From Escherichia phage usur: a stretch of DNA of 41,906 nt. The notes under the pieces are model-generated. The model was not told the DNA's origin. It saw only the letters and a list, made by a program, of their open reading frames with translations, and ran no database searches. Position 1 is the first letter of the stretch. Each line of letters opens with the position of its first letter. The DNA lies in sequence record MN850624.1, one strand, 5' to 3'. A program made the translations under genes and the position numbers. This document shows positions 4,378 to 41,358 of the stretch, one piece after another.

Positions 4378-6750
4378 TTAGATATAAGTGACCGGGTACG
4401 TCGCGGCAAGCTGAGTCCCAGCAGGGATAGCCGTAACGAGCGCCGGGGTAATGTCGATGCGTACCGGGTTCCCGATGTTGTTGTCCACCTGATAAGGCGC
4501 ACGAACCACCGTAACCGTCAGTGGCGCACCACCAGCGCCAGCGCCCGGCACCTGTAGACGAGTACCAGCCGAGATAGGCTTATGGTACAGCCACGAGGTG
4601 GAAGCCTGAGTACCAGCCGGAGTCAGGTTCTGCTCAAGATACGTCTGGCCAGCGGCAGCAGCACGCACCTTGAAGTTGTTCCCATCATCCGGGATATACG
4701 CACCGAAGCCTGTCACGATGAAGTTGCCACCTGAGCCGTCAGTCTTAAACAGCACCGTCCCCTCGCAGAACTCTTTACCAGTCGGGAACTCCCCACCAGT
4801 CAGGGTTGCAAGGTTATTCGGTAGCGTGTACATGCGGTTGACCGGAGACAGGATGACGCCTACGTTACCTTGGATGTTGGTGTACGGGATAGCACGCACG
4901 TTGGAGTTCAGCGTGCTGATATCCGAGTAGCGAGCCTTACTGTACAGCGCACCCTCAGTCATGCCCTCGCCGTAGAAGTTCACGTTCACCATGTTGAGAA
5001 CAGTCTTCTTGCGCGGGTACAGACCGTTGGATGAAGTGCCGCCGCTGGAGTCATCGCCCACAGCATCGAACACCACCCCGGTCACGTTGGTCATATTCAG
5101 CAGCGTTGCCACGCCGAACAGACTCATCGTATGACAGTGGATGTTTTCCAGATGGTACGTGTTGTTGTTCACGTCATCAGAGCCAACGCCAGCATAGAAG
5201 CGTCCGGTACGGGTCTGCACGTTGCGCACAGTCATGTCAAACGAAGGACATGCCGCGCCCGGCGTACCGCCTGCACCTGCTTGGTTCGCACCCCACTCCA
5301 GCATAACGAGACGAATCGCGTTAGGAGAAGTTGCGCCAGTGTTGATTGGCTCACCAGCCACGCCATCAATGGTCATTCGCTTGCAGCCGTAGGTGATTAC
5401 ACCTGCCGCCGTCAGGCCAGTGCCAGTTGACACAGCGAGGTCAGGGTTACAGAACACGTTCTCACACACGCTGTCGCGGGTAACTTCGAAGTGGACAACC
5501 TGACGCACGCCACGCGGAGCATGGACGTTACGGACTACCACGTTCTTGGCGTACTGCGTTTCAGCAGCATCCCAACCGAACGGGCCTTGGCCAGCAATAC
5601 CAATGCCGATACCCCAGTTGGACAGGGGGATAGGAGCGGTCGTACCGTCGAGGTCTTCAAGGTAGATGTTCTCAATCAGCAGGCCACCATCATAGTGCTT
5701 GTTGATTACGTTCATCTCAATGCCGTCACCCAGCATGTTCATCATAGCGATGTTGCGGATAACGCCGTTCTCGATAGCCTCACCCGTACCCTGCTGGAGA
5801 ATACCGAACTTGCCATTGCGGTGGATACCGTTCTCAATGACGTAGCTGCCCCCGGCGATGTTACCTTGGAACAGGATGCTCGCTACCTTGGAGTTCGATG
5901 GCGCACCAGTGAACTCGTAATCGGAGATGCGAACCTTGCCACCCCAGTAACAGACACGGACAGTGGAGGCTTTGAAGTCACGGAACGTGGAATCCAGCAG
6001 CCGGATATCAGCCGTACCGTTCCAAGTGCCGCCGACAACCTCGATACCGTCCATCAGGACAGTGGAGTTGACAGTACCGACCCAGCCACGGGCATCCACA
6101 GTCTTAGCGTTAGCCTTGGCATAGTCGAAGCACGCTTGTACCGCAGCGGCGATAGAGGCGTACCCGGTGTTGTTGGTGAACTCTGACAGGCATACGGTAT
6201 CCTGACGGTCAAGGAACGTACCGCCGCCCAGTGTACCAATCCACTTACCGCCGTCAGCCATTGCCAAAGCAATCGCCAGTGCGGAGTCAGGGATATCAAC
6301 CAGAGGAATCATGAACGGCTGGCCATTGCTGTCAAAGCCCAGTGCCTTGTTGCGGCGGCCAGCGACGTTCGGTAATGCGTTGATGGAGACTTCGGAGTTT
6401 GGGACACGGACGGCGCGGTCAAGCGGCGCGAGCCATGCTTCCTGAGTTTCCTCAGCCTTGAACAGAATCTGCTCGAAGTTCTCGTCGAGGTTGCTGCCCG
6501 TAAAGGCAGCGTCCTGTCCGAACTTGTTCAGCAGAGTCTCAGAGGTGTAGCGTTGCAAACGGACAATCACCCCGGCAAGCGGGGCGGTGTCAAAGACAAT
6601 CTGTTTGGTCACAGAGTTGTAGGTGTACCCGCTCGTCTGGAGTTCGGAGTTGAGGTACACCTGAATCTGTGTGAACACGCGCTGCTCAAACGTAACGAGG
6701 AACGCGGTCTGCGAGCCGTTCGCCACGTAAGTGTTGTAGCTGTTCGCCAT
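4378..6750 (-). CDS. tail fibre/tailspike with T7 gp17-like N-terminal adaptor and beta-helix depolymerase domain
   Basis: 790 aa; N-terminus 'MANSYNTYVANGSQTAFLVTFEQ...' resembles the T7 gp17 N-terminal domain; central region is Gly/Asn/Thr/Val-rich in a way typical of pectate-lyase-like right-handed beta-helices. Confidence 0.75.
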   Translation of the reverse strand: MANSYNTYVANGSQTAFLVTFEQRVFTQIQVYLNSELQTSGYTYNSVTKQIVFDTAPLAGVIVRLQRYTSETLLNKFGQDAAFTGSNLDENFEQILFKAEETQEAWLAPLDRAVRVPNSEVSINALPNVAGRRNKALGFDSNGQPFMIPLVDIPDSALAIALAMADGGKWIGTLGGGTFLDRQDTVCLSEFTNNTGYASIAAAVQACFDYAKANAKTVDARGWVGTVNSTVLMDGIEVVGGTWNGTADIRLLDSTFRDFKASTVRVCYWGGKVRISDYEFTGAPSNSKVASILFQGNIAGGSYVIENGIHRNGKFGILQQGTGEAIENGVIRNIAMMNMLGDGIEMNVINKHYDGGLLIENIYLEDLDGTTAPIPLSNWGIGIGIAGQGPFGWDAAETQYAKNVVVRNVHAPRGVRQVVHFEVTRDSVCENVFCNPDLAVSTGTGLTAAGVITYGCKRMTIDGVAGEPINTGATSPNAIRLVMLEWGANQAGAGGTPGAACPSFDMTVRNVQTRTGRFYAGVGSDDVNNNTYHLENIHCHTMSLFGVATLLNMTNVTGVVFDAVGDDSSGGTSSNGLYPRKKTVLNMVNVNFYGEGMTEGALYSKARYSDISTLNSNVRAIPYTNIQGNVGVILSPVNRMYTLPNNLATLTGGEFPTGKEFCEGTVLFKTDGSGGNFIVTGFGAYIPDDGNNFKVRAAAAGQTYLEQNLTPAGTQASTSWLYHKPISAGTRLQVPGAGAGGAPLTVTVVRAPYQVDNNIGNPVRIDITPALVTAIPAGTQLAATYPVTYI

Positions 6751-9700
6751 TATTCACCCTTAACTGCTTCGTTGAGTGCCCGGACGCCCGGCACGATTGA
6801 GATGAGTGGGATAGCTTGGATGATGTTACCTGCCGTTTTACGAGCGCCGGACACTGCCTGCTCGGTATCACCAGTCAGCACGCCGCCAGCAGCACTGGTA
6901 GCTGCACCCGCCACACCGTAAGCGCGGTCAAGGAACAGCAAGCCCGGCGCACCGAAGCTACGCTGCTGCCCAGTCAGGACGCCAGTGAACTCAGAGGCAA
7001 AGCCGATAGCACCAAGATAATTCAGCGCTTGGCCAGCCAGCTTGTTAGGTGCCATGGTTTCCGGGTCAGAGAATGCTTTACCGGAAATCACGTTATTGGC
7101 GGCAGTGGCCATCATTGCCAGCGGGTACTGGTACGCCATGAGCGTAGCCATGCCACGCGCACCCTCACGATTCCATGTACCCACCAGAGTCTTGTTGTGC
7201 GTAGCCGCGACGAATCGACGGAACGTAAACAGGAACTTACCCAGTGTACTGAACTCAGCAAATGCAGGCAGCTCACCTACACGAGCGCGAACAATAGCGT
7301 CATCCATGGCATTCATCATGACAATGCGAGAGCGATTGAACACCCCTTCATCCCAAGCGTCGGGCTTGGTGCCATGAGTACCAACCTGCTTGCGAATGTC
7401 AGCCAGCAGCGCGTCATTGGCACCATAGGTTTTCATGGCTGCGATAGCCTTGGCATCACCTTCGGCTGCCTTACGCAGCGTCTGCATCACGAGCGCAGCA
7501 TTGGTTCGAGTCTGGTGGAAGTGGATGTATTTCTGCATGTTGATGAACATCGTGGCGTCACGGGCGTGCTCAAGACGCATAACCCACGGTGACTTGTCAG
7601 CAGAGAACATGTCTTCATAGTGCTGCATGATTGGGCGCATACGGATATCGCTCGCCACGGCAGCGGTCAGAGCTTCCTCAGCATCCAAGGCCAACTGACG
7701 ACCTTCCTTAGTAGTAGCCCTCATTTGCTTAAATAATGCGCGAGCTTCCGGGATTGTACGCATCATGGCGCGAAATGTGTTGACCGCCCCGAAACGTTGC
7801 ATCATCGTGCCGTATTCCACCAACTGCCACAGACCGGACGCAGCCAGACCAGTAGCCTGAGTCAGTGCGGAGAGCTGGCGCATGAACTGCGGCATTTCCT
7901 CGCCGACCGGGGAACCCTGATAGTAGGCCATGATATTGTCATACTGCTCCAGTGCTTGGCGTCGAGCCGTACCATCCTTGATGGATTTGGCCAGAGCCTC
8001 ACGAGCAGCAGCGCGTTCGGCGTCAGTACCCAGTCCAGCCTCATGCAGAGCCAATCGCCCTGTAATGCGGCGGTTGTACGCATCCATCATGCTGGTGATG
8101 CTGTCATCGAACAGGTCACGCACCTGCAAGTTAGGGCCGAGCTGGTGCATCATGTCGATGTTGATACGGCTCTTAAGCATCGACGGTCGGCCAGCGTCCG
8201 AGCCAGATTCACGAAGGAGTGCGGAAGCACGGGCCTTGGCAGCCTCGTCAAGTCCTTTCGAGTTCTCAATGATTTCGAGCAGCTCATCGCGGCCCTCCTT
8301 GTTGATAATCATACCGGAGTTGTCGATACCGTAACCCTTGCGGCGAGCACGCTCCACCATGGCATGGGCAATGACGTTGGCAGTCGGACGGTCAGTACCG
8401 ATACCGCGCTGCACGGCAGTCGTCATCTGCTTCATGAATGCTTTCTTGCCAAGCAGTTGCTCAGCCTGCTCAACCTTGGTTACGTTCATCCGACGCGGGT
8501 AGTAGTACGGGTTCTTCTCCACGAAGCCCGGCTCAACCATACCCTTGCGCTCCAGCTCCCGGCCCACGGCGCGAGAGTATTCGCCCAGTCGGTCAGCAGC
8601 ATTGGCCACGTTCGGGTTAGCGCCACGGAAGTTGTTGTCAATCATGCGCTTGTCCAGCTCAAGACGAACAGCAGCTTCGAACTCCTGCTGCGCCCGGCGA
8701 TAGCCAACCGGGTCACGGAAGCGTCGGATGTTACTCCAGCCATCAGTGGTCAGGGCATGGCGCAGGGTGTCCTCGTACTGATTCAGCAGCACACCGAAGC
8801 GAGCCTGAGTCTCGCGCTGGATTGCAGCAGCAGAGGTCATGTTCGGATTCAGCGGGTCATCCAGCAGACGCCCGGCCAGAGCACTGGCTTCGTCAGAATG
8901 CTGACTGAACGACTTGAACAGTGACCACTCAAGGAACGGGCGCTTGGGGTTGGTCTGCTCACCACGGCGAGCGAGGTCGAGTCCACGCTGAGCCGCAGCT
9001 CGGATGGATTCAGGAACCTCATCAGTCTCCATTGCACCGCGACGCCCGAAGCCCAGTGACATTGCCAGCGGAGACATGGCGTTGTTCGGGTCGAACTGCG
9101 GCGGGTTGTTCGGGTCAATCCCGTTACGGCGCTGCATCTCTGCCGCAAATTCCTCCGGCGACAGCTCATCAAGGCGACGAGCTGGTGCAGCGGCTGGGCG
9201 ATAGAATGCAGTGGTGGCCGCCCCGTGCAGGGCAGCCGCAAAGATAATCTCGTTCTGAGACACTGGGCGTGCTTCATTACCCACCGCTGTCATAGTGACA
9301 GCAGTTGAAGCTGCACCGACAGCGGCGGTTCCGAGGCGACCAAGTTTCAGGGCAGTGCCTGCTCCCATCGAGAGCAGGTCAGTGGCGAGGTACAGCGGGT
9401 CAGCGAATTGCAGCACTGCGTTCATCACTGGCGCAGTGTGAGCCAACTGGGTACGCTCGCGCATCTCTTGGAGCTGCTGTGTACGCCAGTTGAACTCATC
9501 CATTGATTTGGACTTGAACAGGAACGTGCGGTCATCCTCAGTCACCGGGAACTGGACATTCTGCAATGCCTCGTTCGGGTGGAAGTCAGGGTCAGCCTGA
9601 AACACAGGCTTGTTGATTGCCGCATCAAAGAGCTGAGTGGTATCCCAGTTCTTCACAGAAGCGCTCAAAGCCGTGGCAATTGGGGTTGCTTCCAGTTCCT

Positions 9701-39975: not shown

Positions 39976-40368
39976 TTACGCCTCCACTACCCAAAATTGC
40001 TCACCATCGTAAGTCCAAGCAGTGAACTGCCCGGCTTCCATCTCCGCTTCTGTCTTGCTGACAAACTTGCCAGCAGGCTTGCCCGGATATGGTGAATCCA
40101 TGAAGATTGCATCATTGTCATCGATCACTACCATGATGCAGTCCTGTTCAAAGGCTTTACAGAACAGCTTAACAGCCTGTCTGATTTCGTAGATTCCATC
40201 GACAGGAAAGACCATGCTTAACTCATACGCATTGTCGAATTTGCCTGTCAGTGTGACCGGAATCACTCCGAACATATCCTGCACCGTTCGCAGTGCCTTG
40301 CAATGAAGCGCCAGATTAACACACTCAGCATTGTTCTGGCGGTATGCGCTTGCATAGATACGGTACAT
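39976..40368 (-). CDS. hypothetical protein, first early gene
   Basis: 130 aa; RBS GGAGAAA 6 nt before ATG 40368; first ORF downstream of the tandem sigma70-like promoters. Confidence 0.55.
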   Translation of the reverse strand: MYRIYASAYRQNNAECVNLALHCKALRTVQDMFGVIPVTLTGKFDNAYELSMVFPVDGIYEIRQAVKLFCKAFEQDCIMVVIDDNDAIFMDSPYPGKPAGKFVSKTEAEMEAGQFTAWTYDGEQFWVVEA

Positions 40369-40846
40369 AGTTATTTCTCCAGTTGTTGGCTATTTTCAGG
40401 TGGATAGTGAACCCATTGTGACGCGCCGTACAGTCTGCACTCAGTGGCATTGATTGGCTTGTCGGATTCACTACCCTGAAAAATCGCCCCGCCCATTTCG
40501 CGCCGTGGATATTGTCTGCATCCACTCTCAGGAGTCTTCCAGCAGTCCGTCGCGTATCTTGCTCACCGTTGCCAGCTAACAAGCCGTTTGACTACCTACC
40601 CGCTATACTCCGCGCCTTATAAGACGTTTGGTATTGTGCTGATACTGCGCTGCGTCTATCGCGCTTCTCTGTTACCTTGCATCAGGCGCTACCCCTACGG
40701 CGTTAGCATTGTTGCGATACCGTTGCCTTTCGGCGATGCCTCACCCAGTTCCAACCTGCGGCGGATACCCAGTGAGCCGTGACACTACGCGGCCAGTTTG
40801 CGTTCACTCAGAGCAGGATGCTTTCCATCCTTTCAACTCGGTGCTG

Positions 40847-40875
40847 ATTACAACACAGTGTATTCAGCTTGTCAA
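40847..40875 (-). promoter_or_regulatory. sigma70-like early promoter P1
   Basis: On the minus strand: TTGACA (40875-40870), 17-nt spacer, TGTAAT (40852-40847), preceded by TGc (extended -10). Confidence 0.5.
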
Positions 40876-40926
40876 CTACTTTTTACTACTGACTGTCAGG
40901 CTTGCTGCCCTGTCAATCTGGAGCGT

Positions 40927-40955
40927 ATTACAGCATACTCGTTTCATCCTGTCAA
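40927..40955 (-). promoter_or_regulatory. sigma70-like early promoter P2
   Basis: Minus strand: TTGACA (40955-40950), 17-nt spacer, TGcTGTAAT (-10 at 40932-40927). Confidence 0.5.
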
Positions 40956-41063
40956 CCGATTTAATCAGCGCCCGTTCTGAGATGAATAAACCGTACCAGT
41001 TTGCCTGCGTGTGTTTTAACGTCTTTATCAATGACTGTTTAGCTTGCTGGCTGACGTGGAAGC

Positions 41064-41092
41064 ATTACAGCATAGTGAGCTTGCCTTGTCAA
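41064..41092 (-). promoter_or_regulatory. sigma70-like early promoter P3
   Basis: Minus strand: TTGACA (41092-41087), 17-nt spacer, TGcTGTAAT (-10 at 41069-41064). Confidence 0.5.
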
Positions 41093-41167
41093 TACACTCC
41101 AGATTGTTAAAGAGCAGTGTTACCGTCTTGCCACCGTGTAGCGATGTTCTGCTACCCGGCGAGATGA

Positions 41168-41197
41168 ATTACAGCACAAAGCGAATCAGACTTGCAA
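41168..41197 (-). promoter_or_regulatory. sigma70-like early promoter P4
   Basis: Minus strand: TTGCAA (41197-41192), 18-nt spacer, TGcTGTAAT (-10 at 41173-41168). Confidence 0.4.
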
Positions 41198-41229
41198 GAA
41201 TTATTTTCACTGAATAGCTCAAATAGTGG

Positions 41230-41330
41230 ATAAGTTACTGTAATCATTAGGAATAAATATTTGATTGAATAGGTTATTGCATAGGATAGATACCGATATC
41301 AGATAGGTTATAAGTTACTGTAATCATTAG
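41230..41330. repeat. two perfect 20-bp direct repeats (TAAGTTACTGTAATCATTAG) 81 bp apart in an AT-rich segment
   Basis: Exact copies at 41230-41249 and 41311-41330; the second copy forms the 5' part of element C. Confidence 0.8.
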
Positions 41331-41358
41331 ATAATTATGAAAGCTACTATAGTGATAT
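41311..41358 (+). promoter_or_regulatory. conserved element C (plus-strand copy of the promoter-like element)
   Basis: Plus strand reads TAAGTTACTGTAATCATTAGATAATTATGAAAGCTACTATAGTGATAT, about 40 of 47 positions identical to element A but in opposite orientation to all genes, pointing into the T-depleted tract. Confidence 0.35.

Follow-up and report, generated by a model that had tools for sequence, protein, structure and literature searches.

The left end of the genome of Escherichia phage usur (record MN850624.1) carries four tandem sites on the minus strand, P1-P4, that are very probably early promoters for the host RNA polymerase in a T3/T7-like phage of the genus Bonnellvirus. The whole record, 41,906 bp with a GC content of 55.4%, is referred to here as the window. 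Judged from the sequence and its relatives, the best explanation of the region, to which we give a probability of about three in four, is that it forms an early transcription control region in which sigma70 promoters are combined with a boxA, a long-range RNA helix and a structured leader RNA. Early clusters of host-polymerase promoters are a textbook feature of T7-like phages, and the promoters alone are ordinary and expected; the leader RNA and a module resembling that of ribosomal RNA (rrn) operons are the noteworthy parts.

Four tandem sigma70-like sites

The sites are as follows.

P1, 41168-41197, minus strand: −35 TTGCAA (41197-41192), 18-nt spacer, TG at 41176-41175, extended −10 TGC-TGTAAT with the −10 hexamer at 41173-41168
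P2, 41064-41092, minus strand: TTGACA-17-TGTAAT with TATGC extended −10 (TGC-TGTAAT)
P3, 40927-40955, minus strand: TTGACA-17-TGTAAT with TATGC extended −10 (TGC-TGTAAT)
P4, 40847-40875, minus strand: TTGACA-17-TGTAAT with TGTGT extended −10 (TGT-TGTAAT)

An earlier note on this DNA had described four minus-strand sites with a −35 (TTGACA three times, TTGCAA once) and a spacer of 17-18 nt, and all of them were found where it had placed them. It had also given them one shared extended −10; the 9-mer TGCTGTAAT is indeed exact in P1, P2 and P3, but P4 reads TGTTGTAAT, which differs at the free n of TGn. The −35 to −35 distances are 105, 137 and 80 bp, so that the spacing of 70-110 bp given earlier fits the first and last intervals but not the middle one.

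Measured against what is expected of a sigma70 promoter, all four −35 hexamers are TTGACA or close to it, the spacers (18, 17, 17 and 17 bp) lie within 17 +/- 1 bp, and the optional TG of an extended −10 at −15/−14 is present at every site. The wider extended −10 has the consensus TRTGn, and this too occurs at all four. The departure is in the −10 hexamer itself: TGTAAT matches the consensus at 5/6 positions and has the expected T at −7, but places a G instead of an A at −11. Purines are present 6-8 nt past each −10, the expected start distance, and the predicted minus-strand starts are ~41161-41160 for P1, ~41057 for P2, ~40919 for P3 and ~40839 for P4. An A-rich tract, GAAAATAAT, lies upstream of P1 and an A-tract, GTAAAAAGTAG, upstream of P4.

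When both strands of the whole window were scored by the sum of −35 matches, −10 matches and TG (maximum 13), P1-P4 came out as the top sigma70-like sites on either strand. Three of them score 12/13, for which 0.005 are expected per genome (200 first-order Markov simulations), and at least four sites scoring 10 or more inside 351 bp were found in none of the 200 simulated genomes (maximum 3, mean 1.3). The motif TGnTGTAAT occurs five times in the window, always on the minus strand, with four of the copies at P1-P4. A built-in promoter scan of the window returned 0 sites, but only because its rule demands an A at −10 position 2, where these sites have G, and this null result is not evidence against them. 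Promoter annotation at the matching region is absent from the Bonnellvirus records examined. Other −10 registers (GTAATn, TAATnn, AATnnn) were ruled out, since the bases past TGTAAT are not conserved and the spacer would be 19-21 bp.

Four copies of the repeated motif TGCTGTAAT or its variant within 350 bp, beside an AT-rich block with direct repeats, could in principle be operators or iterons for a DNA-binding protein of the phage or the host, or promoters for the phage RNA polymerase. We hold this to be very improbable: the conserved parts are a −35 hexamer and a TGn-hexamer separated by 17-18 bp of free spacer, which is the signature of sigma70 and not of an operator, and a different 20-mer, TTATGAAAGCTACTATAGTG, which ends in CTATAG and resembles T7-type promoters, is the likely phage-polymerase promoter. 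This 20-mer has three copies (0 expected), at 41335-41354 (plus strand), 21112-21093 (minus strand) and 35027-35008 (minus strand). One of the two coding-strand copies lies 25 nt past the 810-aa open reading frame (ORF) for RNA polymerase and one lies in an intergenic gap. The third lies 140 bp upstream of P1 on the opposite strand, from where the phage polymerase would transcribe leftward into the terminal repeat, in contrast to phiOL of T7 and T3. The sequence TATCACTATAGT (41357-41346) was considered as a rightward phage promoter and rejected, because the full 20-mer places the promoter-like element on the opposite strand.

Just upstream of P1, in a block of 70% AT, two 32-nt direct repeats (41219-41250 and 41299-41330) are 88% identical and 80 bp apart, and between them AATCAAATATTTA (41266-41254) fits the IHF consensus, WATCAANNNNTTR. 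This block could be a host-factor site, a UP-like region or an origin element.

Conservation of the sites and relation to T3 promoter A1

The high-coordinate 1.6 kb of the window matches the genus Bonnellvirus (Autographiviridae), a group of T3/T7-like coliphages, with Escherichia phage forsur as the nearest match (96% identity) and J8-65, Lidtsur, Kc261, ROV85 and others at 83-95%. The promoters were compared among the window and 14 relatives (15 genomes). The sites are kept in the same geometry in 14/14 relatives, with three sites in Lidtsur, where P2 and P3 are fused. At P1 and P4, the spacers exist in at least five unrelated versions of 17 or 18 nt (P1 itself with 17 or 18 bp), and the −35, the TG and the −10 are invariant except for one TTGCCA and one TGAAAT (P4 of smaasur). 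Fixed hexamers and TG next to variable spacers, as at P1 and P4, are what a sigma70 promoter is expected to leave as a footprint. Downstream of P2 and P3 lie paralogous regions, and a 51-aa ORF in the interval between P2 and P3 was rejected because its start and frame are not conserved.

Further, P1 and the annotated A1 promoter of T3 can be aligned base for base (ggcTATTATtcatctcgtc in T3, tgcTGTAATtcatctcgcc in the window): T3 reads TATTAT-tcatctcgtc where the window reads TGTAAT-tcatctcgcc, so that the two share the −10 register and TCATCTCG after it. P2-P4 have no detectable homology to A1-A3. In a Waewaevirus-like contig (L022), the last promoter, homologous to P4, is TGc-AACTAT in the same register, and the homologous sites of Pantoea phage LIMEzero are annotated as putative host promoters in its record. 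Tandem rightward host-type promoters between the left terminal repeat and the first early gene are what defines the class I region of the T7 group, and this is the arrangement found here. The earlier claim of tandem sigma70 early promoters in the manner of T7 A1-A3 is therefore supported by the alignment of P1 with T3 A1, by gene order and by conservation in 14 relatives. A comparison of the promoter and leader region with E. coli genomes found no homology.

The G at −11

The hexamer TGTAAT places a G at −11 at all four sites, and this G is strictly conserved in Bonnellvirus (the TGAAAT of P4 in smaasur retains it); TGTAAT recurs at promoters of LIMEzero and of L017, both relatives from the Waewaevirus side. 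The A normally found at −11 is the base at which melting nucleates. According to passages of a published study (PMC1919498), a G at −11 is strongly deleterious to open-complex formation in vitro, and substitutions at this position affect initial binding little but block later steps. In the AhdI system, a promoter whose start was mapped by experiment has TGTAAT as its −10 (PMC2275141).

These data raise the alternative that P1-P4 bind the host polymerase tightly and open poorly, and are capture or pausing elements instead of four independent strong promoters, either as closed-complex traps that load polymerase on the entering DNA end or as sigma-dependent pause sites for complexes started at P1. 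The strict conservation of G at all four Bonnellvirus sites and its recurrence in LIMEzero and L017 would fit such a role, as would the preserved binding described in the passages cited above (PMC1919498). Sigma-dependent pausing, however, needs the same recognition of A at −11; the homologues in T3 A1 and L022 have an A at −11 in the same place, which points to ordinary promoter function; and TGTAAT does work as a −10 in AhdI (PMC2275141). We therefore regard capture or pausing as quite improbable and retain the reading of P1-P4 as early promoters, for which the conserved G offers a natural test of how far a consensus −35 and an extended −10 can replace a key base of the −10.

A boxA and a long-range RNA helix downstream of P1

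The interval between P1 and P4 contains further elements that would act in the RNA.

Hairpin predicted near the 5' end of P1 transcripts (first 40 nt), 41131-41162, minus strand (weak evidence)
rrn-type boxA GCTCTTTAACAA, 41104-41115, minus strand, between P1 and P2
Helix 5' strand CAATCTGGAGTGTATT, 41091-41106, minus strand, sharing 3 nt with the end of boxA and 2 nt with the start of the P2 −35
Helix 3' strand AATACGCTCCAGATTG, 40914-40929, minus strand, beginning in the P3 −10

Within the window, GCTCTTTAACA is the only match (0.09 expected) to GYTCTTTAANA, the gamma-proteobacterial BoxA consensus (PMC5725501). It is part of 16 nt, ACTGCTCTTTAACAAT, identical to the E. coli rrn leader; this leader sequence is present in ~7 copies per E. 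coli genome, ~100-140 nt upstream of 16S rRNA. The boxA begins ~46 nt past the predicted P1 start, in a leader position downstream of a promoter but upstream of P2-P4. All Bonnellviruses examined retain it, and every version fits GYTCTTTAANA (that of J8-65 is GTTCTTTAACAA). The same CGCTCTTTAACAATCTGG stands in T7 (811-829) and T3 (781-799) between A3 and the RNase III site R0.3, and a consensus boxA is also found in the early leaders of Era103 and of Waewaevirus-like contigs. A boxA in T7 has reportedly been noted before; a search of the accessible literature on boxA in T7-group phages or on promoters of Bonnellvirus found nothing. The predicted hairpin upstream of boxA has -15 to -22 kcal/mol in most genomes and -8 in the ROV85 type, and its sequence varies while most versions fold. 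In BHUENT7 (L013 ~497-634), an insertion of ~86 nt, predicted to be strongly folded, lies between P1 and boxA.

The two arms of the helix are 16 nt long and 94% complementary, and the partner strand lies 164 nt downstream, with P2 and P3 inside the loop. A 13-bp duplex of about -20.5 kcal/mol is present in 14/15 Bonnellvirus genomes scored; smaasur fell outside the scoring but carries both arm sequences. There are two helix alleles, GGAGUGU/ACGCUCC and GGUGUG/CACACC, which are one fully compensatory pair and two wobble-compatible changes apart, and the strands are always allele-matched though the interior alleles occur in all combinations. In Lidtsur (L014 869-900), a deletion of 137 bp fused P2 and P3 into one intact -35/17/-10 unit, and the same arms flank this single promoter in a 27-nt loop.

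At the equivalent place in LIMEzero, L017 and L022, a strand pair unrelated in sequence forms a duplex of ~25-30 bp (-40 to -48 kcal/mol), the 5' strand of which includes boxA and the 3' strand of which ends just before the last early promoter. The arms of these Waewaevirus-like duplexes are:

L015 (LIMEzero), 930-966 with 1360-1391
L017, 5456-5487 with 5865-5904
L022, 8175-8210 with 8601-8632

They enclose ~380-390 nt, with an ORF of ~113 aa in L017 and L022 (the longest ORF call in LIMEzero is 70 aa). The middle 'promoter' annotated in LIMEzero (928-974) coincides with a boxA-like sequence and the 5' strand of the duplex. A module of boxA and long-range helix is, in varied forms, common to T7, T3, Bonnellvirus and Waewaevirus, and it makes the old idea that T7-group phages use Nus antitermination directly testable in a coliphage of E. 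coli K-12.

A conserved structured leader RNA

Between the last promoter and the first gene lies a leader with a defined 3' domain.

Conserved structured leader RNA, 40369-40846, minus strand: 478 nt separating the P4 −10 from the ATG at 40368
Leader 3' domain, 40393-40482, minus strand: interrupted hairpin of ~25 bp (8 + 11 + 3 + 3 bp) with asymmetric internal loops, ending 24 nt before the ATG

The earlier note had reported a leader of ~470 nt before the first ORF, in agreement with the 478 nt measured here, and had called it unexplained. Its fold is that of a conserved structured RNA. Nineteen sequences from two genera were aligned (the window, 15 further Bonnellvirus and three Waewaevirus-like leaders), with lengths of 431-505 nt in the relatives. 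RNAalifold predicted 67 consensus pairs with 99% of cells paired. Compensatory double changes were seen at 19 pairs, compared with 0-5 when the partners were slid by 1-3 columns, and 0/500 column shuffles reached any observed covariation value; many of the changes are inherited blocks, so that independent events are fewer than one would conclude from the cell counts. For 13 Bonnellvirus sequences taken alone, the prediction has 123 pairs; compensatory changes occur at 13 of these, and hardly any pair is broken. Examples are GGAUG/CAUCC to GGUUG/CAACC, GCC-GAAA-GGC to GCU-GAAA-AGC, GCAUC/GAUGC to GCACC/GGUGC and GGUA/UACC to GGGA/UCCC. Because several helices contain G-U pairs, which fit the sense strand only, the fold belongs to the sense transcript. 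Covariation shows that the leader is a conserved folded RNA.

The fold consists of a hairpin with a GAAA tetraloop, a three-way junction, a replaceable middle domain and the 3' hairpin domain. The loops GGCGCGUCACAAUGGGU, CGAUAGAC and GCUGGCAACGGUGA are conserved between Bonnellvirus and Waewaevirus-like leaders. The middle domain (~40615-40490) exists as two unrelated alleles, one in BHUENT7, Lidtsur and the metagenome contig L024 and one in all others, and about half of the genomes have a 25-nt hairpin, CGGTATCGCAACAATGCTAACGCCG; the leader is therefore modular and exchanged by recombination.

The annotated R0.3 stem-loop of T3 (822-875) ends 26 nt before its gene of the SAM (S-adenosylmethionine) lyase family at 901. 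A site of the R0.3 type calls for an interrupted helix of ~20 bp or more with an internal loop, a structure that the hairpin at 40482-40393 in the 3' domain has. Compensatory changes in LIMEzero (GUGAAU/GUUCAC to GUUCAU/GUGAAC) preserve it. An RNase III site is the best guess for this domain because its position before the start codon matches that of T3 R0.3, and we consider it a candidate for such a T3/T7 R0.3-type site at close to even odds, slightly on the doubtful side.

Searches for a known identity of the leader gave little. Rfam 15 covariance models run at permissive thresholds on the window and four relatives produced chance-level hits only (E > 4), and a search for tRNA and tmRNA found none. 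A metagenome scan for homologues added one more Bonnellvirus contig, a viral-contig scan added two new Waewaevirus-like contigs and two chance hits, and a distant blastn search with the LIMEzero leader gave no new homologues. Several other readings of the leader were set aside. Small ORFs (41 aa at 40496-40371, and others) were rejected as not conserved: L024 lacks the start codon, an insertion of 8 nt is found in Lidtsur, and indels of 25, 5 and 1 nt occur in other relatives. A helix closing the 5' and 3' ends (CGAGUU/AACUGG, touching the Shine-Dalgarno sequence) is predicted but not claimed, being without covariation, and in Waewaevirus its 5' strand is used in a different local stem. A sigma54-like reading of CTGGCAACGGTGAGC was rejected by inspection, with the GG/GC spacing off by one, and the idea of a CsrA sponge was rejected as the GGA motifs are not conserved between alleles. 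According to our reading, a large covarying RNA without known family stands at the very first transcribed sequence of infection.

Points against the reading and the standing of P2 and P3

Several observations weigh against the reading of the region as a whole. At P2 and P3, spacers and hexamers are equally conserved, so that these two sites show no footprint contrast. Because a G at −11 is deleterious, the sites may open slowly or be weak; the full TRTGn extended −10 at all sites and the perfect −35 at three probably compensate for the weak hexamer. Only P1 transcripts could use the boxA, which in T7, T3 and rrn operons follows all promoters. The helix, at 13-16 bp, is short for RNase III, and only a single pair in it is fully compensatory. 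Finally, the folding energy of the leader as a single sequence is not unusual (z = -1.4).

Some of these points bear on an alternative in which only P1, and perhaps P4, is active, while P2 and P3 would be promoter-like duplicates retained for some other purpose, such as being part of the RNA that the helix encloses. In its favor, only P1 transcripts can form the conserved helix, and P2 and P3 are both in its loop; the conservation of their spacers could act on RNA. A G at −11 would be deleterious at them, as the passages of PMC1919498 indicate, Lidtsur lost one of the two through the fusion without obvious harm, and Waewaevirus relatives have only two sites of this geometry. On the other hand, no sites in the genome match sigma70 better than P2 and P3 (consensus −35, 17-bp spacer, TRTGn), the fusion in Lidtsur recreated an intact -35/17/-10 unit instead of destroying it, and T7 and T3 carry three such promoters. 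Keeping these opposing points in mind, we think it unlikely that P2 and P3 are inactive, and favor the reading in which all four sites serve early transcription.

Genome context and the first early gene

The promoter sites sit between the end of the terminal repeat and a SAM lyase gene, which is the first gene downstream of them.

SAM lyase, first early gene, 39976-40368, minus strand: Pfam PF23780 (E = 1.9e-26), T3 gene 0.3 family

The earlier note had fixed the left end of the genome at the high-coordinate end of the window. This orientation is borne out by J8-65, whose annotated terminal repeat (1-259) begins with bases that align to ~nt 46 of the window minus strand; because the determined left end of J8-65 aligns there, the left end of the genome lies at ~41861 and the genes are on the minus strand. 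The first 45 minus-strand nt of the window (41906-41862) precede this physical end and follow the endolysin gene in relatives, and for this reason the window looks like a circularly collapsed assembly that holds the terminal repeat once and was opened shortly ahead of the true end. In and beside the terminal repeat, a 400-nt block (41780-41380, minus strand) has 5% A on the coding strand, the minimum of a genome with 23%; it is composed of short repeats of the GTGCTG/GCGGTGC type and recalls the short repeat arrays beside the T7 terminal repeat.

In J8-65, the gene for the phage RNA polymerase is located at 17.2-19.6 kb, counted from the left end, and scoring of both strands for sigma70-type sites found no other good host-type promoter in the window. 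Given this distance and this lack, host polymerase starting at P1-P4 must express the early and probably the middle genes. In phiKMV-like phages, passages of PMC7552054 state that earlier infection stages use the host polymerase.

Downstream of the SAM lyase gene, a gap of 222 nt to the next gene (39975-39754) holds a 10-bp hairpin, AAUGCGUCUUGCGAGGCGCAUU; the fold of the gap as a whole lacks significance (z = -0.7). In the annotation of J8-65, consecutive early genes are ~70-150 nt apart, and such gaps are possible further processing sites.

Proposed mechanism

We propose that host RNA polymerase with sigma70 would start at P1-P4 as the left end enters the cell, with promoter strength coming from the consensus −35, the 17-18 bp spacer and the full TRTGn extended −10, which would offset the weak TGTAAT. 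In the P1 transcript, the boxA may recruit NusB/NusE (S10) and other Nus factors, by inference from rrn operons and lambda nut sites. A polymerase modified in this way would resist Rho over the long untranslated leader and over the ~18 kb to the end of the phage RNA polymerase gene, and genome entry might be faster through boxA and Nus, by analogy with the transcription-driven DNA entry of T7. RNase III would cut the long-range helix and the ~25-bp 3' leader hairpin, as at R0.3 of T3 and T7, and the cutting would free the SAM lyase mRNA.

A bolder form of this proposal, to which we attach little confidence and which we consider doubtful, is that the left end imitates an rRNA operon, so that a fast, Rho-resistant, Nus-form polymerase pulls in and transcribes ~18 kb, that the leader is a new RNA family with a specific role, and that the G at −11 is an adaptation instead of a defect. 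If this were true, the elements of the imitation would be the tandem promoters, the exact rrn boxA, the helix resembling that between leader and trailer and the long folded non-coding RNA, and the role of the leader, in protein binding or as a tertiary fold, would exceed that of an RNase III substrate.

Comparison with known systems

The closest known system is the early region of T3, with A1-A3, boxA, R0.3 and SAM lyase. The window shares with T3 and T7 the order of terminal repeat, tandem rightward host promoters 80-140 bp apart and a first gene for anti-restriction (in T3 of the same SAM lyase family). Also in common are the identical GCTCTTTAACAATCTGG, the −10 position and TCATCTCG of P1 and T3 A1, and an interrupted hairpin that ends ~25 nt before the start codon. 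It differs in having four promoters and not three, in using TGTAAT with a full extended −10 instead of TATTAT, TAAGAT or TACGAT, and in a boxA that only the first promoter precedes. Where T3 and T7 have the local R0.3 hairpin after boxA, the window has a long-range helix with two promoters inside it. From the last promoter, ~470 nt with a conserved multi-domain fold lead to the first gene, about 2.5 times the ~175-190 nt of T7 and T3, and the upstream phage-type promoter points leftward, unlike phiOL.

The E. coli rrn leader consists of the promoters P1 and P2, a boxB-boxA-boxC element and an RNase III helix formed between leader and trailer. The window resembles it in its tandem promoters, in 16 nt of boxA identity, in a boxA followed by the 5' strand of a long-range helix and in a long, structured and untranslated downstream RNA. 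Beyond boxA there is no homology, however, and a GC-rich discriminator was not seen. The helix of the window, with 13-16 bp, is far shorter, boxA has three of the four promoters downstream of it, and Nus binding is putative here. The C-protein-dependent promoter of AhdI (TGGACT-18-TGTAAT) is like P1-P4 in its TGTAAT −10 (PMC2275141), but it is weak, activator-dependent, located on a plasmid or chromosome, and unrelated in sequence and context.

Pantoea phage LIMEzero (FR751545), in which 'putative Pantoea specific promoters' are annotated at 801-847, 928-974 and 1399-1445, has a homologous region with the same first gene. Its first and last annotated sites show the −35/17/TGTAAT geometry, and its leader of ~450 nt carries compensatory changes. 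It differs in having two sites of this geometry, not four, and in a duplex of ~25-30 bp that encloses an ORF (~113 aa in related contigs) instead of P2 and P3.

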